Of a stretch of 64,000 nucleotides of DNA, positions 5,178 through 19,084 are shown piece by piece. Numbering within the stretch: the first letter of the stretch is position 1; each line of letters begins with the position of its first letter. The stretch comes from Thermoanaerobaculia bacterium (GTDB taxonomy: Bacteria; Acidobacteriota; Thermoanaerobaculia; Thermoanaerobaculales; Sulfomarinibacteraceae). The stretch spans positions 50,974 to 114,973 of the forward strand of contig JAMOWA010000040.1 in NCBI GenBank assembly GCA_027061805.1, in the 5' to 3' direction. A model generated the notes under the pieces. It ran no database searches and had not been told where the DNA came from. It worked only from the letters and a program-made list of their open reading frames with translations. Both the position numbers and the translations under genes were made by a program.

Positions 5178-5193
5178 TGGCATGGGCGTTGCA
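5178..5193 (+). promoter_or_regulatory. Sigma-54 (-24/-12) promoter of the dsr unit
   Basis: TGGCAT-GGGCG-TTGCA has the canonical GG-N10-GC spacing and matches the TGGCAC-N5-TTGCW consensus. Confidence 0.65.
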
Positions 5194-5206: not shown

Positions 5207-5797
5207 ATGGCGACGGCACCGCGGTCTCCGACGTTTGGCGGGCTTCTCGGGAAGCACCGGGCCGCCCTTCTGGCCTGCTGGAGGGAGGCGGCCTTGGAGG
5301 TCTACCCCGACGAGACGCGCCGGTTCCTCCTGCGGGAGAAGGACCGCTTCCAGAACCCCGTGGGTGCCGTCCTCGCGAGCACGCTGGAGGATCTCCTGGA
5401 CGGGCTCCTCGATGGCGCGCCCGGCGGGGAGCTCGCGGCGAGGTGCGACGGCCTGATCCGGGTCCGGGCGGTCCAGGACCTGGGCGCGGCCCGTTCTGTC
5501 GGCTTCGTCTTCGCCCTGCGGGAGGCTGCGCGGAGTCTCCTGGCCCACGAGGACGACGGTGCGGCGGTCCTCCTGGAGCTCCAGGAGCTGGACCGCCGCC
5601 TGGATCGCCTCGCACTGGTGCTCTTCGAGCGCTACGTGGCCTGTCGCGACGAGATGGCCGGAATCCGTGTGCGGGAGGGGCAGCGTCGGGTGGCGGTGCT
5701 CCTGAGACGGCTGGAACGGCTGGAGTCCGGAGGGGCGGAGACCCCCCCTCCGGTGGGGAGTCCTGAGCTTCGAGACAAGGGAGGTTGCAACCCATGA
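5207..5797 (+). CDS. RsbRD_N-like helical domain protein, first gene of the dsr unit
   Basis: WREAALEVYPDETRRFLLREKDRFQNPVG resembles the RsbRD N-terminal domain family (DRFxNPVG) as I recall it. ATG 5207 is the only in-frame ATG downstream of the sigma-54 promoter (GTG 5204 also in frame). The stop overlaps the dsrM ATG (ATGA). Confidence 0.55.
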   Translation: MATAPRSPTFGGLLGKHRAALLACWREAALEVYPDETRRFLLREKDRFQNPVGAVLASTLEDLLDGLLDGAPGGELAARCDGLIRVRAVQDLGAARSVGFVFALREAARSLLAHEDDGAAVLLELQELDRRLDRLALVLFERYVACRDEMAGIRVREGQRRVAVLLRRLERLESGGAETPPPVGSPELRDKGGCNP

Positions 5798-6786
5798 GAG
5801 CCTGGTCGGCGTTGGCAATCGTGGTGGTGCTGCTGGGGGTGGCGTGGGTCGCCTCCGGGACGGGAGGGGGGCAGGCCGTCATCGGGACCGTGATCCCGTA
5901 CCTCGCGGTGGCCCTGTTCCTCGCAGGGATGGTGGCCCGGGTGATCGGATGGGCCCGCTCGCCCGTCCCGTTCCGGATCACAACCACCTGCGGACAGCAG
6001 CGGTCGCTGCCGTGGATCCCCTCGGCGACCCTGGACAACCCCCACACAGGCTGGGGGGCTGTCCGCAGGATGGTGCTGGAGGTGCTGCTGTTCCGGTCGC
6101 TCTTCCGGAACACCCGCAGCGAGCTCAGGCCCACCGAGAGGCTGGTGTACGAGTCGGACAAGGTTCTCTGGGTGGCGGCCCTGGCCTTCCACTGGAGCTT
6201 CCTGGTGATCCTGCTCCGGCACCTGAGGTTCTTCCTGGAGCCGATTCCCCGCCTGGTCCCGCTGCTGGAGACCGTCGATGGCTTCTTCCAGCTGACGGTT
6301 CCCACCCTCTTCCTCACGGATGCCCTCATCGTGGCGGCGCTCCTCTATCTCCTGGGCCGGAGGGTCCTCAACGTCCAGCTGCGCTACCTCTCGCTCGCCG
6401 CCGACTACTTTCCCCTCTTCGTCCTGCTGACCATCGCCACCACGGGGATCCTCATGCGGTACGTCACGAAGGTGGACCTGGTGGGTGCCAAGGAGCTGGC
6501 CATGGGGCTGGTGACCTTCCACCCGGTGGTCCCCCAGGGGATCGGGACCCTCTTCTTCGTGCACCTGTTCTTCGTGAGCGTGCTGTTCGCCTACTTTCCT
6601 TTCTCCAAGCTGGTCCACATGGGGGGCGTCTTCCTGAGCCCCACGCGGAACCTGGCCAACAACAACCGCGCCCGGCGCCACGTCAGCCCCTGGAACCCCG
6701 AGGTGAAGGTCCACACCTACGAGCAGTGGGAAGAGGAGTTCCGGGACAAGCTGGTGGCGGCCGGAATCCCCCTGGACAAGGAGTGA
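5794..6786 (+). CDS. dsrM: DsrM, NarI-like dihaem b membrane subunit
   Basis: Polytopic membrane protein of DsrM size sitting first in an M-K-J-O-P gene order. AAGGGAGG lies 9 nt before ATG 5794, so the ORF-track TTG 5785 is less likely. Confidence 0.85.
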   Translation: MRAWSALAIVVVLLGVAWVASGTGGGQAVIGTVIPYLAVALFLAGMVARVIGWARSPVPFRITTTCGQQRSLPWIPSATLDNPHTGWGAVRRMVLEVLLFRSLFRNTRSELRPTERLVYESDKVLWVAALAFHWSFLVILLRHLRFFLEPIPRLVPLLETVDGFFQLTVPTLFLTDALIVAALLYLLGRRVLNVQLRYLSLAADYFPLFVLLTIATTGILMRYVTKVDLVGAKELAMGLVTFHPVVPQGIGTLFFVHLFFVSVLFAYFPFSKLVHMGGVFLSPTRNLANNNRARRHVSPWNPEVKVHTYEQWEEEFRDKLVAAGIPLDKE

Positions 6787-6789
6787 GCG

Positions 6790-8433
6790 ATGGCGGAGAA
6801 GAGCCCGCAGGAACTGCTGCAGATCGACTACCGCCCGCCCCGGCGGGACTGGATGGACCCCTCCATCGACTTCGAGGCCCGCCGGGGAACCTGGTCGTAC
6901 CCCGCCGCTCCGAAGAACCTGGAGTACCTGGGGTTCCCCAACCCGCGGGAGTGGTCGCCCACGGACGAGGACTGGAAGCTGCCCGACAACTGGCAGGAGA
7001 TCATCCACCAGGGGCTGAAGGACCGGCTGGAGAGGTTCCGCTCCCTGAAGGTGTTCATGGACATCTGCGTCCGGTGCGGGGCGTGCGCCGACAAGTGCCA
7101 CTTCTTCATCGGTTCGGGTGATCCCAAGAACATGCCGGTGCTCCGGGCGGAGCTGCTGCGCTCCATCTACCGCAGGGACTTTACCACCACGGGGAAGATC
7201 CTGGGACGGCTGGCCGGGGGGAGGGAGCTCACGGCCGAGGTCCTCAAGGAGTGGTACTACTACTTCTACCAGTGCACCGAGTGCCGCCGCTGCTCGGTGT
7301 TCTGCCCCTACGGGATCGACACGGCGGAGATCACCATGATCGCCCGGGAGCTCCTCAACCTGGTGGGGCTCAACATCAACTGGGTGATGGAGCCGGTGGC
7401 CAACTGCGACCGCACGGGGAACCACCTGGGCATCCAGCCCCACACGTTCAAGGACAACATCGAGTTCCTCTGCGACGAGCTGGCCGACATCACCGGGATC
7501 AAGATCAGCCCCTCCATCAACCGCAAGGGCGCCGAGGTCCTGTTCATCGTGCCCTCGGCCGACTACTTCGCGGACCCCGGCATCTTCACCTTCATGGGGT
7601 ACCTCCTGCTCTTCGAGCACATCGGCCTGGACTACACCCTGAGCGCCTACGCCTCGGAAGGCGGCAACTTCGGGCTCTTCACCTCCCACGAGACCATCAA
7701 GCGGCTCAACTACAAGATGTACGCCGAGGCGAAGAGGCTGGGGGTCAGGTGGATCCTGGGCGGGGAGTGCGGCCACATGTGGCGGGTTGTCCACCAGTAC
7801 ATGGACACGCTCAACGGGCCGGCGGACTTCCTCGAGGTGCCCCGGTCGCCCGTCACCGGGACCGTGTTCGAGAACGCCGCCTCCACGAAGATGACCCACA
7901 TCTGCGAGTTCACGGCCGACCTCATCGCCAACGGCAAGCTCAGGCTCGATCCCTCGCGCAACGACCACCGCCGGGTGACCTTCCACGATTCCTGCAATCC
8001 CGCCCGGGCGATGGGGATCCTGGAGGAGCCCCGCCACATCCTCAGGACGGTGTGCAACAACTTCTTCGAGATGCCGGACAACACCATCCGCGAGCAGACA
8101 TTCTGCTGCGGTGGCGGGGCGGGGCTGGGCAACGACGAGAACATGGAGATGCGGCTGCGGGGAGGCCTTCCCCGGGCCAACGCCGTGAAGTTCGTCCACG
8201 AACGGCATGGCGTGAACCTGCTGACCTGCATCTGTGCCATCGACAGGGCCACCCTGCCCCCGCTCGTGGAGTACTGGGTCCCCGGCGTGGAGGTCTCCGG
8301 GGTCCACGAGCTGGTGGGCAACGCCCTGGTGATGGATGGGGAGACCCGCCGGACCACGGACCTGAGGGGTGAGCCGCTCGAGGGGGTTGCGGATGAACCC
8401 TCTCCGGAGGCGGAGGAGGCGAGCCATGTATGA
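6790..8433 (+). CDS. dsrK: DsrK, HdrD-like CCG-domain Fe-S catalytic subunit
   Basis: Ferredoxin-type motifs CVRCGACADKC and CTECRRCSVFCP are present, plus a C-terminal CCG signature FCCGGGAG. Length is about 547 aa. Confidence 0.9.
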   Translation: MAEKSPQELLQIDYRPPRRDWMDPSIDFEARRGTWSYPAAPKNLEYLGFPNPREWSPTDEDWKLPDNWQEIIHQGLKDRLERFRSLKVFMDICVRCGACADKCHFFIGSGDPKNMPVLRAELLRSIYRRDFTTTGKILGRLAGGRELTAEVLKEWYYYFYQCTECRRCSVFCPYGIDTAEITMIARELLNLVGLNINWVMEPVANCDRTGNHLGIQPHTFKDNIEFLCDELADITGIKISPSINRKGAEVLFIVPSADYFADPGIFTFMGYLLLFEHIGLDYTLSAYASEGGNFGLFTSHETIKRLNYKMYAEAKRLGVRWILGGECGHMWRVVHQYMDTLNGPADFLEVPRSPVTGTVFENAASTKMTHICEFTADLIANGKLRLDPSRNDHRRVTFHDSCNPARAMGILEEPRHILRTVCNNFFEMPDNTIREQTFCCGGGAGLGNDENMEMRLRGGLPRANAVKFVHERHGVNLLTCICAIDRATLPPLVEYWVPGVEVSGVHELVGNALVMDGETRRTTDLRGEPLEGVADEPSPEAEEASHV

Positions 8434-8839
8434 CGGAGGGAAGATCGTCGCCGGCCTCGTGGTGTTCCTCGTCCTGGTGACGGTGCCCGTCTGGCTGAAC
8501 GCCCTGGCGGGCGGGACGCCCCGGGCACCGGAGCTCGAGCTGCCCCGCGACGAGAGCCGGTGCGTGGAGCCCGCTGCGGTGATGCGGGCCACCCACATGG
8601 AGCTGCTCGACACCTGGCGGGACAGCGTGGTGCGTTCCGACGATCGCTTCTTCACCCTCGAGGACGGCCGGAGGGTGGAACGCAGCCTGAGCCGGACCTG
8701 CCTGGGGTGCCACGACAGGAAGGATGCCTTTTGCGACCGCTGCCACGACTACCTGGCGGTCTCGCCCTACTGCTGGGATTGCCACGTGATCCCCGAGGGC
8801 GGGACGGCCCTGGCGGCGGCGGGAGGGGGTGTGCGATGA
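8426..8839 (+). CDS. dsrJ: DsrJ, trihaem periplasmic cytochrome c
   Basis: N-terminal anchor KIVAGLVVFLVLVTVPVWL and three CxxCH motifs (CLGCH, CDRCH, CWDCH). ATG 8426 overlaps the dsrK end by 8 nt. Confidence 0.85.
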   Translation: MYDGGKIVAGLVVFLVLVTVPVWLNALAGGTPRAPELELPRDESRCVEPAAVMRATHMELLDTWRDSVVRSDDRFFTLEDGRRVERSLSRTCLGCHDRKDAFCDRCHDYLAVSPYCWDCHVIPEGGTALAAAGGGVR

Positions 8840-9609
8840 CGGTGGACCGGAGAACGTTCCTCAAGATCGCGGGCCTCGGAGCGCTGGGGACCACGGGGGT
8901 GTACTCGCTGCCCGTGCTGGGATCGCCGGAGAGCGGTCCGGGGGGGCACGGGGTGCCGGCCCCGGGTGGGACGCGGTGGGGCATGGTGATCGACCTGGCG
9001 GCGTGCCGCCACGACGAGGGGTGCCGGGACTGCATCGAGGTCTGCGGCAGGGTCCACAACGTCCCCCACCACGACGATCCCCGCCACGAGATCAAGTGGA
9101 TCTGGAAGGTGCCCTACCCCGAGGCCTTCCCCATGCAGCAGCACGAGTACCAGGAGCCGGCGCTGCTGGGGATGGCCGTCCCGGTGATGTGCAACCACTG
9201 CGACAACCCCCCCTGTGTGAGGGTCTGCCCCACACAGGCCACGTGGAAGCGGTCCGACGGGGTCGTCATGATGGACTGGCACCGCTGCATCGGCTGCCGC
9301 TACTGCATGGCGGCCTGCCCCTACGGCTCCCGGAGCTTCAACTGGGTGGAGCCCCGGGAGGCGCTGGAACACCAGGACCCCGGGTTCCCCACGCGGACCC
9401 GTGGCGTGGTGGAGAAGTGCAACTTCTGCGAGGAACGGCTGGCGAAGAACGAGCTTCCGGCCTGTGTGACCGCCTGCCCGCACGGGGCGCTGACCTTCGG
9501 CAACCTGGCGGACCCCGACTCGCCCGTGCGGCGGATCCTTGCGGGGCGCATGGCGATCCGCCGGAAGCCCTCCCTGGGGACCCACCCCGAAATCTTCTAC
9601 CTGGTGTGA
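8836..9609 (+). CDS. dsrO: DsrO, Tat-exported 4Fe-4S ferredoxin subunit
   Basis: Tat signal MTVDRRTFLKIAGLGALG. Cluster motifs CNHCDNPPCVRVCP, CIGCRYCMAACP and CNFCEERL..PACVTACP. ATGA overlap with the dsrJ stop. Confidence 0.9.
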   Translation: MTVDRRTFLKIAGLGALGTTGVYSLPVLGSPESGPGGHGVPAPGGTRWGMVIDLAACRHDEGCRDCIEVCGRVHNVPHHDDPRHEIKWIWKVPYPEAFPMQQHEYQEPALLGMAVPVMCNHCDNPPCVRVCPTQATWKRSDGVVMMDWHRCIGCRYCMAACPYGSRSFNWVEPREALEHQDPGFPTRTRGVVEKCNFCEERLAKNELPACVTACPHGALTFGNLADPDSPVRRILAGRMAIRRKPSLGTHPEIFYLV

Positions 9610-9616
9610 GGTGACC

Positions 9617-10774
9617 ATGCTGGAGAACGCCTTCCACGGAGACCGCCGGTACTGGACCTGGATCGGGTTCCTCCTCGTCCTCATGGGCGTCGGGGCCTTC
9701 TTCTACCTCCAGCAGCTGAGGTACGGCCTGGGAATCACCGGCATGAGCCGGGACGTGAGCTGGGGGTTCTACATCGCGCAGTTCACCTTCCTGGTGGGGA
9801 TCGCCGCCTCGGCCGTGATGGTGGTGCTGCCCTACTACCTCCACGACGTGAAGGTCTTCGGGCGGATCACGGTGCTCGGAGAGTTCATCGCCGTGTCGGC
9901 CGTCACCATGTGCCTGGCCTTCATCATCATCGACCTGGGCCAGCCCCAGCGGGCGCTCAACATGGTGCTCCACCCGAGTCCCCGGTCCATCCTCTTCTGG
10001 GACATGATCGTGCTCAACGGCTACCTGGTGCTCAACGTGATCATCACGAGGGTCACGCTGGACGCCGAGCGCAACGGCGAGGCGCCCCCGCGCTGGATCA
10101 GGCCGGTGATCATCCTGTCCATCCCCTGGGCCATCAGCATCCATACCGTGACGGCGTTCATCTACTCGGGCCTCGCGGCGCGGCCCTTCTGGATGACCGC
10201 CATCCTGGCGCCCCGATTCCTGGCCTCGGCCTTCTCCTCGGGTCCCGCCCTGCTGATCCTGCTCTGCCTGATCCTGATCCGCTTCACGAAGTTCGACCCG
10301 GGCTGGGAGGCCATCCAGAAGCTGGCCCTGGTGGTCACCTACGCGGTGCTGGCCAACATCTTCTTCGTGCTCATGGAGCTGTTCACGGCCCTGTACAGCG
10401 ACATTCCGGAACACCTCCTCCACTTCAGGTACCTCTACCTCGGCCTCGACGGGCACCACGAGCTGGTGCCCTGGATGTGGACGTCGGCCTTCCTGGTGGT
10501 GGCCTCGGCGGTCATCCTGGTGACCCCGAGGCTCCGGAGGCAGAAACGCTGGCTGGTGGCGGCCTGCATCGGCGTTGTGGTGGCCATGTGGATCGAGAAG
10601 GGCCTGGGGATGGTGGTCACGGGCTTCGTACCCTCGCCGCTCGAGACGGTGACCCGCTACGTTCCGACCTTCCCCGAGGTGGCCATCACCGTGTCCGTGT
10701 ACGCCCTGGGAGCCCTCATGGTGACGGTCTTCTATCGGATCGCCCTGTCCGTCCGCGGGGAGCTGGCGGGATAG
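9617..10774 (+). CDS. dsrP: DsrP, NrfD/PsrC-like integral membrane quinone-interacting subunit
   Basis: About 385-aa polytopic membrane protein directly after dsrO. Start set at ATG 9617 (MLENAFHGDRRYWTWIGFLLVL). Confidence 0.85.
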   Translation: MLENAFHGDRRYWTWIGFLLVLMGVGAFFYLQQLRYGLGITGMSRDVSWGFYIAQFTFLVGIAASAVMVVLPYYLHDVKVFGRITVLGEFIAVSAVTMCLAFIIIDLGQPQRALNMVLHPSPRSILFWDMIVLNGYLVLNVIITRVTLDAERNGEAPPRWIRPVIILSIPWAISIHTVTAFIYSGLAARPFWMTAILAPRFLASAFSSGPALLILLCLILIRFTKFDPGWEAIQKLALVVTYAVLANIFFVLMELFTALYSDIPEHLLHFRYLYLGLDGHHELVPWMWTSAFLVVASAVILVTPRLRRQKRWLVAACIGVVVAMWIEKGLGMVVTGFVPSPLETVTRYVPTFPEVAITVSVYALGALMVTVFYRIALSVRGELAG

Positions 10775-10783
10775 GGAGGCGGG

Positions 10784-12451
10784 GTGGGCGCCGCGGCGCG
10801 CTCCGTTGTGGTGGTCGGCGCCTCGGCGGCGGGGCTCCGGTGCGCGTGCCGGCTGGCGAGGCTCCAGCCCTCCTGGGACGTCCTGGTGGTGGAGGAGCGG
10901 GAGGTCTTCTCGTACGGGGCCTGCGGCCTGCCCTACGTGCTCTCGGGGGACATCGGCGAGGCCGAGGAGGTCCGGAGGACCGCCTGGGGCGTGGTCCGCG
11001 ACGCGGAGTTCTTCGACGCCTGCAAGGGCGTGAGGGTACTCCCGGCGACGCGCGCCGTGGAGGTCCGTGACGGGGTGCTCGCCGTGGAGGGCCCGTCGGG
11101 CCGTGAGGAGCTCCCCTGGGACGAGCTCGTCCTGGCCACCGGCGCCCGGGCCCGCCGCCTTCCCGGCCAGCCCGACCATCCCGCGGTCCGCACCTTCCAC
11201 ACCTGGGACGACGTGGAGCCGCTCAGGGAGGGGCTGATCCGGGGCCGCATCGGGTCCGTGGCCGTCGTGGGCGCCGGGCCCATCGGGTGTGAGCTGGCGG
11301 AGGCGTTCGTGGCCATGTGGGGGGCGGAGGTGACGCTGCTGGAGGCCATGGCCCACCCCCTCCCCGGCCTGCTGGGTCCCGAGGCCGCCGCGGTGGCCAC
11401 CGGTGTCCTCAAGAGCGAGGGTGTCGCGGTGCGTTGCGGTGCCCCCGTGGAGGCCATCGAGCCCGCCGGGGAGGGCGTGGTGGTGACCGCGGGGGGAGAA
11501 CGGCATGCGGTGGACACCGTGGTGGTGGCCGTCGGGGTGGAGCCCGCCGTGGAGCTGGCCCGCACCGCCGGCGCGGCCCTGGGACCCACCGGCGCCATCG
11601 CGGTGGACGAGCGTCTCGCCACCAGCGTGCCCCACGTCTGGGCGGCCGGCGACTGCATCGAGTGCCGCCACGCCGTCACGGACGGCCCGGTCCACCTCCC
11701 CCTGGGGTCGCTGGCGAACCGCCAGGGGAGGATCCTCGCCAACGTCCTGGCGGGGCGGGACGACCGGTTCGGACCCGTGGCGGGTTCGGTGGCGGTGAAG
11801 GTCTTCGACCTGGAGGTGGCGGCGGTGGGCTGCTCCCTGGAGCGGTCCCTGGCCCACGGTCTCGATGCCGCGGCCGTCTGGATGACCACGGACGCTGCGG
11901 CCCACTACTGGCCGGAGTCCTCGAACCTCCACCTCTGCCTGGTGTACGAGAGGGGCACGGGGCGCGTGCTGGGCCTCCAGGCGGTGGGGCGCCGTGGTGC
12001 GGTCCGGGCCGTGGACGTGGCGGCCCAGCTGGTGGCCCGCGGGGGGACCCTCGGGGAGCTGGAGCACCTGGAGCATGCCTACGCGCCGCCCTTCGCACCG
12101 GCCCTGGACCCCGTGGCTGTGGCGGCCTCCGTGGCGCTCAACGCCTGCGAGGGCGTGACCTGCACCGGACCGCTGGAGCCACCCCCCGGCCGGGTCCTCG
12201 ATGTCCGGCTTCCCGAGGAGATCGGGGAACGCAGGACCCCGTTCCGCGAGGTGCTGGAGCTCCCCCTGCACGAGCTCCGCCGGGCAGAGGTGCCCGGCGG
12301 TCCCGGGGAGCTTCTGGTGGTGTGCGAGCGCGGGACCCGCTCGGCGGAGGCCGTGAGGCTCCTGGCAGCCCGCGGGGTGACCGCGCGCTACCTGGGGGGC
12401 GGCCTCCTGTGGCGGTGGGCTGCCGGGAACGGACAGGGGGGGGCGTCGTGA
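10784..12451 (+). CDS. CoA-disulfide reductase / NADH-dependent persulfide reductase-like flavoprotein with C-terminal rhodanese domain
   Basis: FAD fold VVVVGASAAGLRCA, redox Cys in SYGACGLPY, second Rossmann motif VAVVGAGPIGCE and AAGDC. The C-terminal rhodanese loop is VVCERGTRS (CxxxxR[ST]). GTG start lies after GGGAGG. Confidence 0.8.
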   Translation: MGAAARSVVVVGASAAGLRCACRLARLQPSWDVLVVEEREVFSYGACGLPYVLSGDIGEAEEVRRTAWGVVRDAEFFDACKGVRVLPATRAVEVRDGVLAVEGPSGREELPWDELVLATGARARRLPGQPDHPAVRTFHTWDDVEPLREGLIRGRIGSVAVVGAGPIGCELAEAFVAMWGAEVTLLEAMAHPLPGLLGPEAAAVATGVLKSEGVAVRCGAPVEAIEPAGEGVVVTAGGERHAVDTVVVAVGVEPAVELARTAGAALGPTGAIAVDERLATSVPHVWAAGDCIECRHAVTDGPVHLPLGSLANRQGRILANVLAGRDDRFGPVAGSVAVKVFDLEVAAVGCSLERSLAHGLDAAAVWMTTDAAAHYWPESSNLHLCLVYERGTGRVLGLQAVGRRGAVRAVDVAAQLVARGGTLGELEHLEHAYAPPFAPALDPVAVAASVALNACEGVTCTGPLEPPPGRVLDVRLPEEIGERRTPFREVLELPLHELRRAEVPGGPGELLVVCERGTRSAEAVRLLAARGVTARYLGGGLLWRWAAGNGQGGAS

Positions 12452-13497
12452 GCGTTTCCGGAGCCGGCATCGTGCAGGTGGGCCTCGACCACAGGGACGT
12501 GGGCGCGGAGGCCTACGAGCGCCTGCTGGCCTCGGGATGGTGTTCCGGCCGGCCGGAGCTGCCCGTGGGTGCCGGCATGGTGGCGCTGGCCACCTGCCAC
12601 CGCCGGGAGCTCTACCTGGAGGGGGTGGATCCGGCGCGGGCCCTGGCGCTCTTCGGCGAGTGGGCCGGGGCGGTGGCACCGCCGGAGATCCCCCCGCGGA
12701 TCCGGGTGGGTGTGGAGGCCGGGCGTCACCTGCTCCGCGTCACGGCGGGGCTGGAGTCGGCAGTGCTGGGGGAGGACCAGATCCTGGGGCAGGCCCGGGA
12801 GGCCTACCGGCGCGCCTGTGCCGACCGGCGGGCGGGCCCGGTCCTCCACCGTCTGTTCCACGCCGCGTTCCGGGCGGGCAAGCGCGTCCGGACCGAGACG
12901 GAGCTCGGCCGGGGGGGGCGTTCCCTGGCCGGTGTGGCGGTGTCCTGGCTCGCGTCGGCCGTGGGCGGCCTGAAGGGACGGCGGGTTCTCGTGCTCGGTG
13001 CCGGCGAGATGGCGGCCGTTGCGGCGCAGCGGCTGGTCAGGCGGGGAGCCGGCGAGCTCGTGGTGGCCAACCGGACGCTGGAGCGGGCCCGGGAGCTGGT
13101 CCGCCGGGCGGGGGGGCGAGCGGTCCCCTGGAGCTGGTGGCCCGGGCTGCTCGCGGAGATGGACGGTCTCGTGTGCGCCACCGGCGCCCCGGAGCCCGTG
13201 GTCCGGCGGGAGCACCTGGGGCCGGCCGTGGGACGGCTGGCGGTGGTGGATCTCGCCGTGCCGCGGAACGTGGAGGTGCCGGAGGAGCGGGATCGTGGGG
13301 TGGTGGTGGCCGGGGTGAGCGAGCTGGTGGGCCGGCTGGCCGGCGAGGAGAGGGCGCGCTCCGCCTCCGTGGGGGCCGCGGAGCGGATCGTTGAGGAAGA
13401 GCTCGGAACGTGGACCGGATGGCTGCAGGCCAGGGGAGAGGGGGCCGTCCGGCGGGGTAGGGGTACAGGAGGGCGAAGGGTTGTGAGCGCCGGCTGA
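12448..13497 (+). CDS. hemA: Glutamyl-tRNA reductase
   Basis: ATCHRRELY (catalytic Cys motif), GLESAVLGEDQILGQ and NAD(P)-binding VLVLGAGEMA. GTG 12448 overlaps the upstream stop (GTGA). At 349 aa it is short at the C-terminal dimerisation end. Confidence 0.8.
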   Translation: MSVSGAGIVQVGLDHRDVGAEAYERLLASGWCSGRPELPVGAGMVALATCHRRELYLEGVDPARALALFGEWAGAVAPPEIPPRIRVGVEAGRHLLRVTAGLESAVLGEDQILGQAREAYRRACADRRAGPVLHRLFHAAFRAGKRVRTETELGRGGRSLAGVAVSWLASAVGGLKGRRVLVLGAGEMAAVAAQRLVRRGAGELVVANRTLERARELVRRAGGRAVPWSWWPGLLAEMDGLVCATGAPEPVVRREHLGPAVGRLAVVDLAVPRNVEVPEERDRGVVVAGVSELVGRLAGEERARSASVGAAERIVEEELGTWTGWLQARGEGAVRRGRGTGGRRVVSAG

Positions 13498-13540
13498 GGC
13501 CGGGGACACTCGAGCGCCCGGAAACGGCAGGGGGGGAACG

Positions 13541-15316
13541 ATGTTTCCGGTGATGTTGCAGGTGGCTGGGCGATCCTGCCTGGTGGTGGGTGGGGGGGGT
13601 GTCGCCCTGCGCAAGGCCCAGGCCCTGGTGGCGGAGGGGGCGAAGGTGACGGTGGTGGCGCCCGAGGTGGTGGCGCCCCTGGAGGAGATGGCCGCACGGG
13701 GGGAGCTCGAGATCGAGCGGCGGCCCTACAGGCCGGGAGAGGCGGCGGGCCACCGGCTCGTCCTGGCGGCCACCGATGACCGCGAGGTGAACCGGCGCGT
13801 CTTCGACGACGGCGAGGCCGCGGGGGTCTGGGTCAACGTGGCGGACGACCCGGAGCTCTGCGCCTTCCACCTGCCGGGGCGGGTCAGGAGGGGGAGCCTG
13901 GAGATCGACATCTCCTCCGGAGGGAACGCCCCCTTCGCCGTGCGGCGGCTCAGGAGCCTCTTCGAGGCCCGCCTCGAACCCGAGTGGAGCGAGTGGATGG
14001 AGGCCGCGGCGCGGTTCCGCCGGATGGTGCTGGCCAGTGGCCTGGACCGGGCCGCCCAGGAGGCGGCCTTCGATCGCTTCATGGAGCGGACGGTGGACGG
14101 CGAGACCCTGCGGATCCGGGTGCCCGGCGATGAGGAGATGGCCTCGTGGATCGGATCGGGACCCAGCCGGGAGGGCGCCGCACCCACGGGTTCACCGGAA
14201 CCCTGTGGCCCGGAACGCGACGGGAAGGGGTTCGTCACGCTGGTGGGGGCGGGCCCCGGGTGCCCGGGGCTGCTGACGGTCCGGGGGAGGCGGCGTCTCA
14301 TGGAGGCCGACGCGGTGGTGTTCGACCGGCTGGCGACCGGTGCGCTGCCCACGGACCTTCCTCCCGAGACCGAGCTGCACCCCGTGGGCAAGACCGCCGG
14401 ACGCCACCCCGTGCCCCAGGAGGAGATCGTCGCCCTGCTGCTCCGGCTGGCCCGCGAGGGCAGGAAGGTCGTCCGGCTCAAGGGCGGGGATCCCTACATC
14501 TTCGGCAGGGGCGCGGAGGAGGCCGCGGTCCTGGCCTCGGCCGGGGTGCCCTTCGAGGTGGTCCCGGGGGTCACCTCGGGGATCGGTGGCCTGGCGTGGG
14601 CCGGGATTCCCGCCACCAACCGGCGGGAGGCGGTCCGGGTGACCCTCCTGACCGCCCATGAGTGCAGCAAGCCGGAGGGTTCCCAGGTGCGCTGGGACCT
14701 GCTGGCCAGGGACCCGGCCGCCACCCTCGTGGGGTACATGGGCCTCACGGTGCTGCCCGACGTGGTCGCCCGGCTCCTGGAGGAGGGAATGGACCCGGCG
14801 ACGCCGGCGGCCGTGGTGGAGAGGGCGGCCACCTCGGCCCAGCGGAGGGTCGTCGCCACGCTCTCCGGGCTTCCAGAGGCGGTGGCCGCGGCGGGCCTGA
14901 GGCCCCCGGCGCTCTTCGTGATCGGCCCCACGGTTCGCCACGCGGAGGAGCTGGACTGGTTCGCCCGGCGGCCCCTGGCAGGGCAGCGCCTGGCGGTGAT
15001 GGCCCGTCACAGGGAGCTCGTGGAGGCCCTGGAGGACGGAGGCGCCGAGGTGGTGGTCCTGCCGTTGCCGGTGACGCCCGCCGCGCGGCTCGTGGCGGCG
15101 TGCCGGCCCCTGACGGGGTGTGTCCTGCTGGACCCTGCCGAGGTGGAGGTGATGGACGAGGAACGTCAGGCCGGGGCCTGGGGGGACGATCCTGTGGCAT
15201 GGTGTGTGGGAGAGCCGGCCGCACAGCGGGCGCGGGACCTGGGGTGGCCCCGGGTGTGGTCGCTTTCCGTGGAGGTGGGCTGTGAACGCCTGGTGGACGA
15301 GATCGCCGCTCGGTAG
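13541..15316 (+). CDS. cysG: Siroheme synthase-like fusion: precorrin-2 dehydrogenase/ferrochelatase + uroporphyrinogen-III C-methyltransferase + partial HemD-like tail
   Basis: N-terminus CLVVGGGGVALRKAQALVAEGAKVTVVAP (SirC/Met8-type Rossmann fold). Middle region VTLVGAGPGCPGLLTVRG..VVRLKGGDPYIFGRG..VVPGVTS (SUMT). The last ~110 aa resemble half of a uroporphyrinogen-III synthase. Confidence 0.8.
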   Translation: MFPVMLQVAGRSCLVVGGGGVALRKAQALVAEGAKVTVVAPEVVAPLEEMAARGELEIERRPYRPGEAAGHRLVLAATDDREVNRRVFDDGEAAGVWVNVADDPELCAFHLPGRVRRGSLEIDISSGGNAPFAVRRLRSLFEARLEPEWSEWMEAAARFRRMVLASGLDRAAQEAAFDRFMERTVDGETLRIRVPGDEEMASWIGSGPSREGAAPTGSPEPCGPERDGKGFVTLVGAGPGCPGLLTVRGRRRLMEADAVVFDRLATGALPTDLPPETELHPVGKTAGRHPVPQEEIVALLLRLAREGRKVVRLKGGDPYIFGRGAEEAAVLASAGVPFEVVPGVTSGIGGLAWAGIPATNRREAVRVTLLTAHECSKPEGSQVRWDLLARDPAATLVGYMGLTVLPDVVARLLEEGMDPATPAAVVERAATSAQRRVVATLSGLPEAVAAAGLRPPALFVIGPTVRHAEELDWFARRPLAGQRLAVMARHRELVEALEDGGAEVVVLPLPVTPAARLVAACRPLTGCVLLDPAEVEVMDEERQAGAWGDDPVAWCVGEPAAQRARDLGWPRVWSLSVEVGCERLVDEIAAR

Positions 15317-16220
15317 GGCCGTGCTGGGGGTGGTCCTGGTTCTTTCGGCCGGGATCGCTGCCGGTGGGATGCAGCGGGCCGGAGGGCCGGCTCCACGGGT
15401 CGAGCCGCTGCGCCTGGGGGTGGTCGGGTTCTACAACCCCAGGCTCATGTACCTGAAGTACCAGGAGCTGGTGGACTACCTGACGGAGACCACGGGGCGG
15501 AGGTGGGAGCTGGTCATCGGATCCAGCTACGAGGAGACCGTGGAGGGGCTGTGCTCGGGGACGCTGGACCTGGCGTACCTGGGTCCCTTCACCTACGTGC
15601 AGGCCCACGCCCGGTGCGGTGCCCTGCCGGTGGTGCGATTGCGGACACTGGGCCGGGAGACCTATCGGAGCCTCATGCTCGTGCGAACGGACAGCCCCAT
15701 CCGGGAGGTCTCGGACCTCGGGGGCAGGCGTTTCGGGTTCGGGTCTCCCCTCTCCACCTCCTCCCACCTGGTGCCGCGGGCGATCCTCATGGAGGCGGGC
15801 CTTGCTGCGGGCAAGGATGTGGAGTGCCGGTACTTCCGGCATCACGAACGGGCGGCCCGGGCCGTGCTCCTTGGCGAGGTGGAGGCCTGCGGCGTCCGTG
15901 ACATCGTGGGGGAGAAGTACGTGGGTCGGGGCCTGAGGGTGCTGGCGCGCTCGGATCCGATCCCGAACTTCCCGCTGGTGGTGGGACCGGGCGACGACGG
16001 CACCATCCGCCGGATGATCGTCCGGGCGCTGCTGGAGGTGCCGCAGAAGGAGCCGGCCGTCCGTGCGAGGATGGGGTGCTGGGACCGGGAGCTTGCCGGG
16101 GGGTTCCTGCCGGCAGCCGATGCCGACTACGACGGGGTGAGGGTCCTGGCCAGGCGGGTCTTCGGTCCCCGGGCGCTGCTGCTCGGGCCCGGGGCGCTGC
16201 AGTGCGGGGGAGGTGACTGA
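15282..16220 (+). CDS. PhnD-like (phosphonate-type) periplasmic solute-binding protein, sensor-associated
   Basis: LRLGVVGFYNPRLMYLKYQELVDYL..LDLAYLGPFTYV..GFGSPLSTSSHLVPR fits the type-2 PBP Phosphonate-bd family. Start is uncertain (GTG 15282 overlapping cysG, or GTG 15321). Confidence 0.7.
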   Translation: MNAWWTRSPLGRAVLGVVLVLSAGIAAGGMQRAGGPAPRVEPLRLGVVGFYNPRLMYLKYQELVDYLTETTGRRWELVIGSSYEETVEGLCSGTLDLAYLGPFTYVQAHARCGALPVVRLRTLGRETYRSLMLVRTDSPIREVSDLGGRRFGFGSPLSTSSHLVPRAILMEAGLAAGKDVECRYFRHHERAARAVLLGEVEACGVRDIVGEKYVGRGLRVLARSDPIPNFPLVVGPGDDGTIRRMIVRALLEVPQKEPAVRARMGCWDRELAGGFLPAADADYDGVRVLARRVFGPRALLLGPGALQCGGGD

Positions 16221-16223
16221 TCC

Positions 16224-17696
16224 ATGTTCCGGCTGGGCCTCCGGGCCAAGTTCTTCCTGTACTCCAACACCCTCATCGTGGTGACCATGATGCTGGTGAC
16301 CGCGCTGGCCCTGGTCCACGAGAAGAGGCTGCGGTACGAGGCCATCGAGAAGAGGGGCCTCTCGCTGACGGAGGCACTGGCCATTCCCATCACCGACGCG
16401 CTGCTCTACGAGGAGATGGGCCTCGTGGAGGAGAGCGGGCTCATCGAGAACTACATCGAGGAGATCCTGGGGCGCAACCGGGACCTCATGCGGTACGTGA
16501 TCGTGACCGATCCTCAGGGGATCGTGACCCACACCAACCGGTGGGAGCTGCTCGGCAAGCGGTTCGACCGGGCCGTGGGACGGGAGGCCATCGGCAGGGA
16601 GCCCATCGTCGAGGCGCGTGTCACGGAGGACGGGGAAAGGGTCCTGGAGGTGCGGGCACCCCTGGCCATCTCAACCCGGTTCTGGGGCTCCATCACCGTG
16701 GGGTACTCGCTCCGGGCCATCGACCGGGAGATCCGGGAGCTGGCGCGGAAGGCGGCCATCATCGCCCTCATCCTCATGCTGGGAAACTCCATCATGACCG
16801 CCCTCTACGTGGAGACGCTCATCCGCCCGATCCTGGGGCTCTACCGCACCATGCGCCGGGCGGCCCGTGGCGACCTCACCGTGCGGGCGGACGACCGGAG
16901 GGCGGACGAGGTGGGAGGGCTGGCCCGGGCGTTCAACCACATGATGGACGAGCTGGAGGAGGCCAGGGAGCGGGAGAAGGCCCAGCAGGCCCAGCTGGCC
17001 CACACCGAGAAGATGGCTGCCGTGGGCACCCTCGCCGCCGGCGTGGCGCACGAGGTGAACAACCCGCTGGCGGGGATCCTCGGTTGCATCGAGAACCTGC
17101 GGGCCCATCCCGACGACGAGGAGATGCGGTACCGGTACCTGGACCTCATCGCAGACGGTGTGAAGCGGATCGAACGGACGGTCTCGAACCTGCTGGACTT
17201 CTCCAGGCCCCGTCCCATGCAGCCGGTTCCCACGTCGATCAACCACAATCTCCGGCATGTCATGGAGCTCACGGAGTACCAGGTGAGGAAGGCGGGGGTG
17301 GAGGTCCGGCTTCACCTCGACCCGTCCGAACCGCTGGTGCTGGCCGACCACTTCCAGATGGAGCAGCTGTTCCTGAACCTGGTGCTCAACGCCCTCCAGG
17401 CCATGCCCGACGGCGGTGAGCTGACCCTGAACACATCCCGCCGGGACGGGCAGGTTGTGATCGAGGTCCGGGACACCGGGGAGGGCATTCCACCGGAGGT
17501 CCTCGAGAGGATCTTCGATCCATTCTTCACCACCCGCGGGGTCGGGGAGGGGACCGGCCTGGGACTCACGGTGAGTGACACCATCGTCCGGTCACACCGC
17601 GGGACCATCGAGGTGGAGAGCACCGTGGGCCGGGGGACGGTGGTCCGTGTGACCCTTCCCGAGCTCTCGGATGCCGACGACGAAGGGGGTGCGTGA
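16224..17696 (+). CDS. Sensor histidine kinase (2 TM, periplasmic domain, HAMP, HisKA, HATPase)
   Basis: TM segments TLIVVTMMLVTALALV and AAIIALILMLGNSIMTALYV, H-box AAGVAHEVNNPL, N/G boxes LNLVLNALQA and DTGEGI..GTGLGL. Confidence 0.9.
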   Translation: MFRLGLRAKFFLYSNTLIVVTMMLVTALALVHEKRLRYEAIEKRGLSLTEALAIPITDALLYEEMGLVEESGLIENYIEEILGRNRDLMRYVIVTDPQGIVTHTNRWELLGKRFDRAVGREAIGREPIVEARVTEDGERVLEVRAPLAISTRFWGSITVGYSLRAIDREIRELARKAAIIALILMLGNSIMTALYVETLIRPILGLYRTMRRAARGDLTVRADDRRADEVGGLARAFNHMMDELEEAREREKAQQAQLAHTEKMAAVGTLAAGVAHEVNNPLAGILGCIENLRAHPDDEEMRYRYLDLIADGVKRIERTVSNLLDFSRPRPMQPVPTSINHNLRHVMELTEYQVRKAGVEVRLHLDPSEPLVLADHFQMEQLFLNLVLNALQAMPDGGELTLNTSRRDGQVVIEVRDTGEGIPPEVLERIFDPFFTTRGVGEGTGLGLTVSDTIVRSHRGTIEVESTVGRGTVVRVTLPELSDADDEGGA

Positions 17697-19084
17697 TGGC
17701 TCTGCTCTGTGGCAACAGACTTCTCATCGTGGAGGACGAGCCCCTTCTGCGCATCACGATGGCGGACGCCCTGAGGAAGGAGGGGTGGGCGGTGGACGTG
17801 GCGGAGGACGGCGTCAAGGGCAACGCGCTCTTCGAGCGCTCGTTGCACGATGTGGTCCTCACCGACCTGGTGATGCCCCGGATGGACGGCATGGCGCTGC
17901 TCAAGAGGATCAAGGCGCTGCAGCCCGACACCACCGTGGTGATCATCACCGCCCACGGCTCCGTGGATCGTGCGGTGGAGGCCATGAGGGAGGGTGCGGC
18001 GGACTTCATCTCGAAACCGTTCTCCATGGCCCAGCTCCTGGTCCGTCTCAACAACGTGTGCTCGGTCCGGATGCTCAGGGAGCAGAACGTCCGCCTCCAG
18101 GAGCAGCTGGAGGAGCGGTTCTCCTTCTCCAACATCATCGGCAAGAGCAAGAAGATGTTCGAGGTCTTCGAGCTCATCAAGGTGGTGGCCGATTCCGAGG
18201 CCAGCGTCCTGGTCCTGGGGGAGAGTGGTACCGGCAAGGAGCTGGTGGCCTCGGCCATCCACTACAACTCACCCCGGAGGACCAAGCCGTACATCCGGGT
18301 GAGCTGTGCGTCGCTGCCCGAGTCGCTCATCGAGTCGGAGCTCTTCGGGTACGAGCGCGGGGCGTTCACGGGAGCCAGCGAGCGGCGCATCGGGCGGTTC
18401 GAGGCCGCCAGCGGCGGGACCCTCTTCCTGGACGAGATCGGTGAGCTCCCCCTCTCCTTCCAGGTCAAGCTGCTCCGGGTCCTCCAGGAGCGCCAGATCG
18501 AGCGCCTGGGTTCCAACCGTCCCATCGACATCGACGTCCGGTTCGTCGCGGCGTCGTTGCGGCCCCTGGAGGAGGAGATCGCCGAGAGCCGTTTCCGTGA
18601 GGACCTCTACTTCAGGATCAACACCGTGACCATCCAGCTCCCGCCCCTCCGCGAGCGGCGGGAGGACATCCCACTGATGGCGCAGTCGTTTCTCCAGGAG
18701 TTCGCCCAGGAGAGGGGCAAGGAGCTGGAGGGGTTCTCCGACGAGGTGCTCGAACGATTCGACAGTTACTCCTGGCCCGGGAACGTGCGGGAGCTGCGCA
18801 ACGTGGTGGAACGGGCGGTGCTCTTCTCACGGGGACCGCTGGTGACGGCGGAGGCCCTCCCCGAGAACCTGATGGCCTCCGCAGGTCCCGTGGTCCGGGA
18901 GGCCGAGCCCGTCCGGAAGGTGGTGAAGCTCCAGGAGGCGGTGGAGAGGGCGGAGGTGGAGGCGATCCGCGCGGCCCTCTCGGCCACCGGTGGACGCCGG
19001 TCCGACGCTGCCGATCTCCTGGGGATCAGCCGGAAGACCCTGTGGGAGAAGATGCGGAACTACGGGATCCAGCACGATGGGTAG
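17696..19084 (+). CDS. NtrC-family sigma-54-dependent response regulator (REC + AAA+ + Fis-type HTH)
   Basis: REC domain with [13 protein letters not shown], Walker A GESGTGKE, intact [15 protein letters not shown], and C-terminal [24 protein letters not shown]. The ATG overlaps the kinase stop. Confidence 0.9.

Follow-up and report, generated by a model that had tools for sequence, protein, structure and literature searches.

In the DsrMKJOP membrane complex, DsrK reduces the DsrC trisulfide, a reaction driven by menaquinol and possibly also from the periplasm; the cofactor of DsrAB, in turn, is siroheme. The gene dsrT "always precedes" dsrMKJOP (PMC6018805): in the clusters of Chlorobi and of the peatland Acidobacteria SbA1-7 it comes right before dsrMKJOP, and homologs of precorrin-2 dehydrogenase and uroporphyrinogen methyltransferase (dsrV/dsrW) follow dsrP (PMC6018796, PMC6018805). 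The dsr clusters of the lineages that carry the flavoprotein described here also code for DsrL, a cytoplasmic NAD(P)H-linked flavoprotein of a GltD/Nfn-like family with Fe-S domains (Fer4_20 + Pyr_redox_2) (PMC7596348).

Flavoproteins of a different family combine an FAD/NADH domain with a C-terminal rhodanese domain, as in the Npsr of Archaeoglobus fulgidus (AfNpsr; PDB 6PFZ), the Npsr of Shewanella loihica (SlNpsr; 3NTA), the CoADR-RHD of Bacillus anthracis (BaCoADR-RHD; 3ICR) and the CoA-persulfide reductase of Enterococcus faecalis (CoAPR; 8A56). The last three types are known from sulfur respiration or from sulfide-stress (cst-type) operons and are not known from dsr operons. The A. fulgidus gene is presumably not adjacent to that organism's own dsr genes, whereas the homolog described here is embedded in a dsr operon.

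The dsr gene string

Nine co-directional genes on the + strand occupy positions 5207-15316 of the window (the whole 64-kb stretch of DNA analysed), in the order dsrT, dsrMKJOP, a 555-aa flavoprotein gene, hemA and cysG. The initial annotation had placed them there correctly, and matches to NCBIfam and Pfam profiles bear out the identities it gave them. It had, however, ended the array at 15316, and the genes for a PhnD-like protein, a histidine kinase and a sigma-54 regulator in fact continue it to 19084. The features are:

5178..5193, + strand: sigma-54-type -24/-12 promoter-like motif TGGCATGGGCGTTGCA, 14 nt upstream of the dsrT start
5207..5797, + strand: dsrT, RsbRD_N-domain protein, 196 aa (Pfam PF14361, RsbRD_N, E 2.9e-14)
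5794..6786, + strand: dsrM, membrane cytochrome b, NarI-like (NF038037, 516 bits vs cutoff 300)
6790..8433, + strand: dsrK, cytoplasmic Fe-S/CCG catalytic subunit (NF045796, 743 bits vs cutoff 400)
8426..8839, + strand: dsrJ, triheme cytochrome c (NF038038, 154 bits vs cutoff 100; three CXXCH)
8836..9609, + strand: dsrO, periplasmic Fe-S protein with Tat signal (NF045797, 299 bits vs cutoff 200)
9617..10774, + strand: dsrP, NrfD-type membrane subunit (NF045798, 465 bits vs cutoff 350; Pfam NrfD)
10784..12451, + strand: flavoprotein of Npsr/CoADR-RHD type by phmmer and fold, 555 aa (Pyr_redox_2, E 1e-58)
12448..13497, + strand: hemA, glutamyl-tRNA reductase, short form, 349 aa (TIGR01035, 222 bits vs 209.55)
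13541..15316, + strand: cysG-type siroheme synthase, 591 aa (NF007922, 403.5 bits vs 400)
15282..16220, + strand: PhnD-family periplasmic binding protein, 312 aa (Pfam Phosphonate-bd, E 7e-56; TIGR01098, 127 bits vs 112)
16224..17696, + strand: sensor histidine kinase, sCache_3_2-HAMP-HisKA-HATPase (domains per the record of an identical contig)
17693..19084, + strand: sigma-54-dependent response regulator, NtrC/AtoC type (Response_reg, Sigma54_activat, HTH_8)

The first gene, earlier labelled "RsbRD_N-like", is nothing other than dsrT, because the Pfam match is combined with a position directly before dsrM and an ATGA overlap with it, and the published definition fits (PMC6018805). The public call for this gene starts ~29 codons further downstream. 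All five DsrMKJOP subunits exceed their NCBIfam equivalog cutoffs. DsrK displays two CX2CX2C motifs and one CCG, and DsrO, with the N-terminus MTVDRRTFLK, contains a Fer4_11 domain and a weak TAT_signal match (E 0.017, below threshold). An ORF at 8829-9614 in the mechanical list was rejected as dsrO, the frame of which is that of the ORF 8560-9609.

Of the tetrapyrrole enzymes, HemA is composed of GlutR_N and Shikimate_DH domains, with the catalytic Cys within TCHR, and CysG of NAD_binding_7 and TP_methylase domains, followed by an extra C-terminal region of ~125 aa with only a weak HEM4 match. Siroheme genes in dsr clusters, a feature to which the initial annotation had drawn attention, are already known as dsrV/dsrW (PMC6018796); the window differs in that a single fused CysG-type gene covers both siroheme functions and in that hemA is added.

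The junctions, as read from the sequence, are as tight as first described, with overlaps of 4-8 nt and otherwise gaps of at most 43 nt: dsrT/dsrM and dsrJ/dsrO share an ATGA, dsrK and dsrJ overlap by 8 nt, the flavoprotein gene and hemA by 4 nt (GTGA), and the remaining gaps measure 3, 7, 9 and 43 nt. Shine-Dalgarno-like GGAGG/GGGAGG stretches lie ahead of gene starts in the array. Further downstream, the PhnD-like gene, which overlaps cysG by 35 nt provided that the start at 15282 is correct, is kept after cysG in ~15 related loci. The histidine kinase, which also matches NCBIfam kinase-core models, and the response regulator are each kept in ~23 related loci (51-72% and 71-94% identity, respectively). 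The sigma-54 activator gene closes the same gene string that opens with a sigma-54 motif.

A scan of the window with the sigma-54 pattern returned 4 matches against 0.96 expected, a count reached in 2 of 100 shuffles, and a motif of this kind also stands just 5' of dsrT in 11 related loci. We infer co-transcription and sigma-54 control from sequence only: the genes from 5207 to ~19084 probably constitute a single sigma-54-driven transcription unit.

Neither dsrAB nor dsrC was found in the 64 kb, as had been noted at the outset, and neither was dsrL or dsrN: a Pfam scan of ~45 ORFs across the window, covering all but short ORFs in a few gaps of ≤2.3 kb, gave no match to NIR_SIR or DsrC; no window ORF has a DsrC-type C-terminus; and tblastn with DsrL, DsrN and DsrC queries from relatives found no match in the window. 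The operon had been taken for a self-contained module, a view that the relatives do not support. Acidobacteriota-type loci show the order dsrL-dsrN-dsrC-dsrT-dsrMKJOP-flavoprotein, with dsrL-dsrN-dsrC contiguous and immediately 5' of dsrT in nearly all relatives, and in Ignavibacteria-type loci the string is additionally contiguous with qmoAB, sat and aprA downstream. Rather than being a property of the system, the break is specific to the window and to L002, the locus most closely related to it, and Usp/PilZ genes lie upstream in both instead; the dsrAB and dsrC of this organism may have been lost. Interrupted dsr clusters are normal in classical sulfate reducers too (PMC6018805). As had been suggested, the lineage belongs to the non-classical carriers of dsr genes, and the closest loci come from Acidobacteriota/Thermoanaerobaculia MAGs.

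The flavoprotein and its slot after dsrP

The flavoprotein, with an FAD/NADH domain bearing Cys47 and a C-terminal rhodanese domain bearing Cys514, is by sequence and structural model an Npsr/CoADR-RHD-type enzyme. It aligns with 6PFZ across residues 7-542, rhodanese domain included (phmmer, E 3.8e-91), and its AF2 model (pLDDT 92.7) places 6PFZ as the closest solved relative (Foldseek TM 0.92/0.95, rmsd 1.8 A), with further full-length matches to 8A56, 3ICR and 3NTA. Since Pfam Rhodanese on the C-terminal 105 aa reaches only E 0.045, below threshold, the rhodanese assignment rests on the full-length alignment and the fold; the NCBIfam CoADR models likewise score below their cutoffs. With the fold matching over the full length and Cys514 kept, a plain NADH oxidase devoid of the rhodanese Cys is ruled out, and the CoADR-rhodanese identity first proposed holds.

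AfNpsr, also from an organism with a Dsr system, has the same two-domain architecture over its full length, and its Cys42 and Cys519 correspond to Cys47 (redox) and Cys514 (rhodanese). Its lid loop reads TTYGAVR where the window flavoprotein has TAWGVVR; the TxxGxxR pattern has been described as special to AfNpsr, and AfNpsr Glu183, the equivalent of Glu187, as the NADH determinant (PMC7969121). The two differ in that they share only ~36-39% identity and in that the Acidobacteriota-type clade has an additional, invariant Cys20 as well as a GASAAG FAD motif. 3NTA, 3ICR and 8A56 share the fold, the domain order (TM 0.89-0.91) and both aligned catalytic cysteines at 28-32% identity. DsrL, in contrast, is a separate upstream gene in relatives, whereas the window flavoprotein is without an Fe-S motif and has a rhodanese domain. 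Cys47, the CxxGxR motif of Cys514, the lid loop and Glu187 are each retained in every dsr-linked homolog that has sequence at the position concerned. The use of NADH and the binding of CoA are predictions, and the substrate most of all.

Synteny with dsrP is not unique to this genome. A genome scan recovered the flavoprotein gene directly after dsrP in ~40 loci; the MAGs carry the labels Acidobacteriota and Ignavibacteria/Bacteroidota, apart from isolated ones that are labelled otherwise. In every locus of that scan with an ortholog of at least 50% identity and upstream DNA available, dsrP lies directly upstream, except for L020, where a 3.7-kb insert separates the two; the same holds for the Ignavibacteria/Bacteroidota clade at 31-36% identity. 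In metagenomes, a scan seeded with DsrP rather than the flavoprotein showed that 24 of 71 dsrP loci have the gene no more than 600 nt downstream of dsrP, and brought in a third divergent clade. The three dsr-linked clades are 33-40% identical to one another; neighbor-joining bootstrap gives 100% for each, and 60% of replicates set all dsr-linked sequences apart from the others. Given this recurrence, a functional link between the flavoprotein and Dsr is well founded. The gene is accessory rather than essential to Dsr function, since it is missing from about two-thirds of the 71 sampled dsrP loci and apparently from the peatland Acidobacteria MAGs, in which consecutive locus tags run dsrP-dsrWa and dsrP-dsrV; in the published descriptions of the Chlorobi and SbA1-7 clusters, unlike in the window, the siroheme genes follow dsrP with no flavoprotein listed in between.

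Possible roles of the flavoprotein

We lean towards the view that a large dsr gene island in a Thermoanaerobaculia-like member of the Acidobacteriota is represented here by its distal half, with an AfNpsr-like persulfide reductase as a conserved accessory. The unit would encode DsrT, DsrMKJOP and a cytoplasmic NADH-dependent enzyme of this type; HemA and CysG would feed tetrapyrrole synthesis, the latter yielding siroheme, which may double as heme precursor; and a PhnD-like sensor protein, a histidine kinase and a sigma-54 activator would be the unit's own. If the enzyme works as other Npsr enzymes do, sulfane sulfur would first be taken up by Cys514, on the surface of the rhodanese domain, enzyme-bound CoA would ferry it to Cys47 beside FAD, and NADH would then reduce it to H2S. 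Likely donors would be persulfidic species from the DsrAB/DsrC/DsrK cycle, namely: (i) DsrC persulfide; (ii) low-molecular-weight or CoA persulfides; (iii) polysulfide. The outcome would be either the regeneration of free DsrC and thiols or the clearance of reactive sulfane sulfur during pathway operation, and the flavoprotein might act directly with DsrK or DsrC.

A tentative alternative is protective housekeeping: a reductase of CoA or other low-molecular-weight persulfides, or of polysulfide, co-expressed with a sulfide-producing pathway and without a specific Dsr partner, would prevent CoA and other thiols from being loaded with sulfane sulfur, in the manner of E. faecalis CoAPR or of the protective role suggested for AfNpsr. 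In architecture, fold and catalytic residues match 8A56 as well as they match 6PFZ, two-thirds of related dsrP loci do without the gene, and some close RHD-bearing homologs have no dsr neighbours (L027, L041, L043, L044). Further, the substrates of AfNpsr include the persulfides of cysteine, glutathione and CoA as well as polysulfide, and the study of that enzyme suggested a protective function while calling the physiological one unidentified (PMC7969121). However, the exact post-dsrP slot in three such divergent clades is unexpected for a generic detoxification gene, and no CstR-type regulator or other sulfide-stress gene was seen in the cluster. This alternative overlaps the accessory persulfide reductase that we favor; the difference is that DsrC would be no substrate.

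We regard as unlikely the reverse or bidirectional case, in which the flavoprotein forms persulfide, or acts mainly as a sulfurtransferase, and loads DsrC for oxidation by DsrMKJOP and DsrAB in lineages with DsrL and DsrD but without DsrEFH, thereby supplying the sulfur transfer step invoked for Acidobacteria. Among the labels of linked MAGs are the "group three" phyla Acidobacteriota, Myxococcota and Bacteroidota, which retain DsrL but lack DsrEFH (PMC11406059), dsrL is in the same cluster in relatives, and a rhodanese Cys is a typical sulfane carrier. Against this, all characterised family members are NAD(P)H-consuming reductases (PMC7969121), and DsrT and other cluster markers go with reductive operation (PMC6018805, PMC11406059). 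The sequence gives no sign of direction, and the SbA1-7 MAGs, from which the problem arose, seem to be without the gene. Least probable is a partnership with hemA and cysG in the synthesis or maturation of siroheme and heme for DsrAB, DsrM and DsrJ: the gene is invariably flanked by dsrP on one side and tetrapyrrole genes on the other, shares 4 nt with hemA in the window, usually has hemA next in the third and Ignavibacteria clades, and, where absent, often leaves cysG straight after dsrP (8 loci), but we know of no established step of siroheme or heme synthesis that uses a CoADR/Npsr-type enzyme, the invariant rhodanese and redox Cys indicate sulfane-sulfur chemistry, and ~2/3 of the Acidobacteriota-type loci with the flavoprotein gene lack hemA.

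We found no paper describing a link between this flavoprotein and dsr genes. Sulfite respiration is completed by the membrane complex that the dsrTMKJOP operon, here of the Acidobacteria type, encodes. The flavoprotein gene is a conserved, so far unnamed accessory gene of such dsr clusters and, because three gene lineages that are only distantly related all have it after dsrP, its product is probably an overlooked part of the Dsr pathway.

The gene string around dsrMKJOP

DsrMKJOP, together with DsrC, constitutes the terminal stage of sulfite and sulfate respiration, at which energy is conserved. Within this complex it is DsrK that reduces the DsrC trisulfide, according to passages of PMC6018796 and PMC6338057 that draw on Santos et al. 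2015. The initial annotation had described nine co-directional genes at 5207-15316, and both their identities and their junctions are borne out by the sequence. The subunit order M-K-J-O-P is intact, and all five corresponding NCBIfam equivalogs exceed their cutoffs:

Gene calls and family scores in the nine-gene string
5207-5797 (+): dsrT, the first gene
DsrM: NF038037, 516 bits (cutoff 300)
DsrK: NF045796, 743 bits (cutoff 400)
DsrJ: NF038038, 154 bits (cutoff 100)
8836-9609 (+): DsrO, in the frame of ORF 8560-9609 with its ATG at 8836; NF045797, 299 bits (cutoff 200)
DsrP: NF045798, 465 bits (cutoff 350)
10784-12451 (+): the flavoprotein, 555 aa
12448-13497 (+): HemA, 349 aa; TIGR01035, 222 bits (cutoff 209.55)
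CysG, 591 aa, ending at 15316; NF007922, 403.5 bits (cutoff 400)

The window has a G+C content of about 68%. Two mechanically called ORFs were rejected as neither has any family match (8829-9614 in the case of dsrO, 5182-5766 in that of dsrT); the right frames are those listed. DsrK carries two CX2CX2C motifs (CVRCGAC and CTECRRC) and a CCG motif, and DsrJ three CXXCH heme-c sites (CLGCH, CDRCH and CWDCH), while DsrO begins with the Tat signal MTVDRRTFLK, for which the TAT_signal match is weak and below threshold (E 0.017). The first gene had been noted as RsbRD_N-like. The domain stands (PF14361, E 2.9e-14), and since a gene with an RsbRD N-terminal domain that "always precedes" dsrMKJOP is precisely the definition of dsrT (Anantharaman et al. 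2018, PMC6018805), the gene is a standard dsrT. A word-indexed protein search with its product returned six matches. The string is tightly packed, with ATGA overlaps at dsrT/dsrM and dsrJ/dsrO, an overlap of 8 nt at dsrK/dsrJ and GTGA at flavoprotein/hemA; the remaining gaps are 3, 7, 9 and 43 nt, and the starts are preceded by GGAGG-like ribosome-binding sequences.

The two terminal genes pass their family cutoffs narrowly, with the expected domains present (NAD_binding_7 and TP_methylase in CysG). HemA is short, being without the usual C-terminal part, and its catalytic cysteine lies in TCHR as against the usual TCNR. CysG extends about 125 aa beyond the model, with an extra C-terminal tail encoded at 14936-15316 whose sole match is a weak one to uroporphyrinogen-III synthase (HEM4, E 0.013); tblastn matches of similar length suggest that this tail is conserved in relatives.

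Identity of the flavoprotein

The product of the gene directly 3' of dsrP displays the Pyr_redox_2, Pyr_redox and Pyr_redox_dim domains of the PNDOR fold. Its best sequence match among solved structures (phmmer) is 6PFZ, the NADH-dependent persulfide reductase of Archaeoglobus fulgidus (AfNpsr), with an E-value of 3.8e-91 over residues 7-542, rhodanese domain included; the CoA-persulfide reductase 8A56, the Bacillus anthracis CoADR-RHD 3ICR and the Shewanella Npsr 3NTA come next. An AlphaFold model built from 26 homologs (pLDDT 92.7, pTM 0.91) superimposes on 6PFZ with TM-scores of 0.92/0.95 and an rmsd of 1.8 A, and on the other two-domain enzymes with TM-scores of about 0.9. On the last 105 residues the Pfam Rhodanese match is sub-threshold (E 0.045), which we do not count against the domain because the solved-structure sequence and fold comparisons both cover it. 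Scores for the CoA-disulfide reductase equivalogs fall well under their cutoffs (TIGR03385, 294 bits against 578.8; NF007123, 259 against 458) and, hence, the protein should not be named a CoA-disulfide reductase.

Four features have been named in AfNpsr: the redox cysteine by the FAD, a surface cysteine of the rhodanese domain, a lid loop and Glu183 (PMC7969121). Each has a counterpart here. The AfNpsr redox Cys42 beside the FAD aligns with Cys47, the single redox cysteine near the N-terminus, in an invariant SYGACGLPY; the surface Cys519, the first sulfur acceptor, corresponds to Cys514 in CERGTRS, a motif conserved in each dsr-linked homolog that extends into the domain; the NADH determinant Glu183 corresponds to Glu187; and the lid loop TTYGAVR, which is absent from the homologs of Shewanella and B. 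anthracis (PMC7969121), is TAWGVVR. All four recur in every dsr-linked homolog that we examined, the one exception being an Asp at the Glu187 position in the related locus L111. Taken together, sequence and predicted fold identify the flavoprotein as an Npsr/CoADR-RHD-type enzyme, nearest to the A. fulgidus type. The original CoADR-rhodanese call is thereby upheld by the full-length match to 6PFZ, the fold and the two cysteines, and the conservation of Cys514 speaks against a plain NADH oxidase devoid of a rhodanese cysteine. DsrL was considered as another identity and ruled out: it is a GltD/Nfn-like protein with Fe-S cluster domains, whereas the flavoprotein belongs to a different family without Fer4 or Fer4_20, and in relatives DsrL is encoded by a separate gene.

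A further cysteine, Cys20 (10841-10843), lies in GLRC beside an unusual GASAAG FAD motif. Of the 24 full-length dsr-linked proteins of the Acidobacteriota type that the genome scan yielded, 23 have it; the two other dsr-linked clades, AfNpsr and the homologs unlinked to dsr genes do not.

Genomic neighborhoods and probable control of the operon

A profile of the flavoprotein was run against one genome per species and the window's other genes were located in the 80 loci returned. Among orthologs of at least 50% identity (about 30 loci), dsrT-dsrMKJOP lies directly upstream in all that retain upstream DNA, and cysG lies downstream. The MAGs concerned are mostly labelled Acidobacteriota, Thermoanaerobaculia, Ca. 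Sulfomarinibacteraceae or Vicinamibacteria, with a few labelled Myxococcota, Pseudomonadota or Fibrobacteraceae. One locus (L020) has an insert of 3.7 kb separating dsrP from the flavoprotein gene. Flavoproteins of Ignavibacteria/Bacteroidota MAGs, 31-36% identical, make up a second group, and their genes too lie directly 3' of dsrP. Homologs without a rhodanese domain (from Actinomadura and others) have no dsr neighbors, and four rhodanese-bearing homologs (L027, L041, L043 and L044) are also unlinked, L027 being flanked by MoxR/DUF58 and protease genes.

The reverse frequency was obtained from a DsrP-profile scan of metagenome contigs, which gave 71 dsrP loci with a DsrP identity of 59-70% and at least 400 nt of downstream sequence. 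The flavoprotein gene lies within 600 nt 3' of dsrP in 24 of these and cysG directly 3' of dsrP in eight, the rest having other genes there. Ten of the 24 metagenome flavoproteins, 33-38% identical to the window protein, form a third clade without taxonomic assignment, in which the gene is mostly followed by hemA, a short precorrin-2-dehydrogenase-like gene, or both:

Members of the third clade (metagenome contigs)
L085, L087, L090, L093, L094, L097, L101, L117, L137, L143

Thus, the synteny with dsrP is widespread and not peculiar to one genome. A neighbor-joining tree (200 bootstraps) of the genome and metagenome sequences with PDB proteins, including AfNpsr and 3IWA of D. vulgaris, supports each clade at 100%. 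A single ancient recruitment of the flavoprotein is plausible from this tree, though not established, because the grouping of the dsr-linked proteins apart from all others, AfNpsr and 3IWA included, reaches only 60%; the single dsr-linked clade of a tree built from the genome loci alone was dropped on this account once the metagenome and PDB sequences had been added.

Among the downstream partners, hemA is found 3' of the flavoprotein gene in most of the Ignavibacteria-type and third-clade loci, as against only about 9 of 26 loci of the Acidobacteriota type. Siroheme-synthesis homologs, dsrV and dsrW(a), are known in the dsr clusters of Chlorobi and peatland Acidobacteria, and the peatland MAGs have consecutive locus tags for dsrP-dsrWa or dsrP-dsrV (PMC6018796); from these gapless tags, they seem to be without the flavoprotein.

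The noted lack of dsrAB and dsrC in the 64 kb is corroborated. A Pfam scan of about 45 ORFs across the window, picked by codon-position G+C and leaving out short ORFs in a few gaps of up to 2.3 kb, found no sulfite-reductase or DsrC domain; no ORF in the window has a DsrC-type Cys-X10-Cys-X terminus; and DsrL, DsrN and DsrC queries from related loci gave no tblastn match in it. However, neither the idea of a self-contained module nor that of the missing neighborhood as a trait of the system survives comparison. In almost all relatives with upstream sequence, dsrL, dsrN, two conserved ORFs and dsrC precede dsrT without a break; the Ignavibacteria-type order is dsrN-dsrL-dsrC-dsrT, and in these loci qmoA, qmoB, sat and aprA follow the flavoprotein gene and hemA. 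Only the window and L002, the locus closest to it (DsrK 86% and response regulator 94% identical), differ, so that the missing neighborhood is a lineage-specific break of a larger island; classical sulfate reducers, too, usually have interrupted dsr clusters (PMC6018805). In these two loci alone, dsrT has Usp and PilZ genes on its upstream side, where the window has:

4169-4900 and 2311-4431: upstream genes for PilZ, dodecin, a tandem universal-stress protein (-) and DUF2147

A hairpin with a T-run follows the dodecin gene at 4983-4998; such sites occur at chance frequency in the scan. The ORFs between dsrN and dsrC in relatives, neither of which is in the window, encode a protein of about 160 aa without a Pfam match and a TPR protein of about 190 aa (e.g., L012 2926-3429 and L019 2872-3919, with corresponding positions in about 20 loci), and they possibly correspond to some of the unnamed "syntenic genes 1-4" in Hausmann et al. 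2018.

On its 3' side the string continues into genes for a binding protein and a two-component system, listed here with the four sigma-54 motifs of the window:

5178-5193: sigma-54 -24/-12 motif TGGCATGGGCGTTGCA, 14 nt before the dsrT start
15282-16220: PhnD-family binding protein, directly after cysG
16224-17696: sensor kinase
17693-19084: sigma-54-dependent response regulator, starting 4 nt before the kinase stop
19307-19322 (+): perfect sigma-54 motif, before ORF 19484-20251, which has no family match
22543-22558 (-): perfect sigma-54 motif, before the porin-like gene 21297-22571 (-)
52523-52538: fourth sigma-54-like motif

The kinase and regulator follow cysG in about 23 Acidobacteriota-type loci, the regulator being 71-94% identical, and the PhnD-like protein is conserved in about 15. 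The four sigma-54 motifs compare with 0.96 expected in the window, and all four are intergenic and face a gene; an equivalent motif occurs just 5' of dsrT in 11 relatives. A sigma-70 promoter and terminator scan of 4500-19600 gave nothing above chance. We infer from the sigma-54 motifs and the conserved genes that the operon is activated by the two-component system at the sigma-54 promoter 5' of dsrT. The ORF at 19484-20251 and the porin-like gene possibly belong to the same regulon, since both adjoin the two-component system in the related locus L004 too. A PhnD-like domain is the tetrathionate sensor of TtrS, which makes a sulfur oxyanion a plausible ligand of the PhnD-like protein.

Elsewhere in the window, genes for a squalene/phytoene synthase (40346-41512, -), a diphosphomevalonate decarboxylase (about 42603-43560, -) and a complete 2-oxoacid dehydrogenase set (E1 alpha, E1 beta, E2 and E3; 43962-49074) appear unrelated to the dsr cluster. 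An FG-GAP repeat protein (53211-54926) is encoded upstream of a 1537-aa protein (56998-61611) with BACON as its sole recorded domain. Neither an Rfam nor a tRNA scan of the window gave a match.

Proposed role in the Dsr pathway

In Npsr, sulfane sulfur passes to the rhodanese cysteine, then to bound CoA and then to the redox cysteine, with NADH as the reductant (PMC7969121). We propose that the flavoprotein would handle persulfidic sulfur from around the DsrAB/DsrC/DsrK cycle, with DsrC itself, small thiol persulfides or polysulfide as candidate donors. That the slot after dsrP is kept among proteins of 33-40% identity speaks for a functional coupling with the Dsr system, and we incline, if modestly, to the view that the flavoprotein is a sulfane-sulfur reductase of the Npsr type that is tied to the Dsr pathway. 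A purely protective housekeeping function, with four rhodanese-bearing homologs standing apart from dsr genes and the kept slot arguing for coupling, strikes us as possible and distinctly less probable.

More speculatively, the flavoprotein could be a dedicated and as yet unnamed Dsr component, namely a soluble NADH-linked partner of DsrC whose rhodanese cysteine would take persulfide or trisulfide sulfur, or would load DsrC in reverse. This would furnish, alongside the quinol-coupled step at DsrK, a second route coupled to NAD(H) in lineages that lack DsrEFH and carry DsrL (MAGs labelled Acidobacteriota, Ignavibacteria/Bacteroidota and Myxococcota); we regard it as rather unlikely. Operation purely in reverse, loading sulfur onto DsrC, is improbable, and a cofactor-supply role, despite the adjoining hemA and cysG, highly so.

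The authors of the AfNpsr study called Npsr in a sulfate reducer "anomalous", its role being unidentified (PMC7969121). If true, the reading of the flavoprotein as a partner of DsrC would explain Npsr homologs in sulfate reducers unable to respire sulfur; more generally, the dsr context suggests an answer to the role of this enzyme class in sulfate reducers, which that study left open. The sulfane-sulfur reductase that we favor could link the NADH pool to sulfane-sulfur intermediates of the Dsr cycle, and it is a candidate for the unexplained sulfur-transfer step in Acidobacteria without DsrEFH and TusA. The presence of dsrD, dsrL, dsrT and dsrN is used to predict sulfur reduction as against oxidation from genomes. 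Since roughly one in three of the Acidobacteriota-like dsrP loci sampled carries an Npsr-type gene, and the slot after dsrP is kept in three deeply diverged clades, the flavoprotein is a candidate extra marker and a biochemical lead.

The open-access literature that we searched describes no Npsr/CoADR-RHD gene in dsr clusters, although an earlier description elsewhere is possible; a dsr-cluster Npsr, CoADR or rhodanese flavoprotein goes unmentioned in Hausmann 2018, Anantharaman 2018, Thiel 2019, Loeffler 2020, Flieder 2021, Neukirchen 2023, Klier 2024 and a 2026 paper on DsrEFH. Neither the conserved dsr-linked gene for a persulfide reductase nor its sigma-54 two-component control seems to have been reported previously, and the conserved two-component system, along with its PhnD-like sensor protein, provides a testable handle on how the pathway is switched on in uncultured sulfur cyclers.
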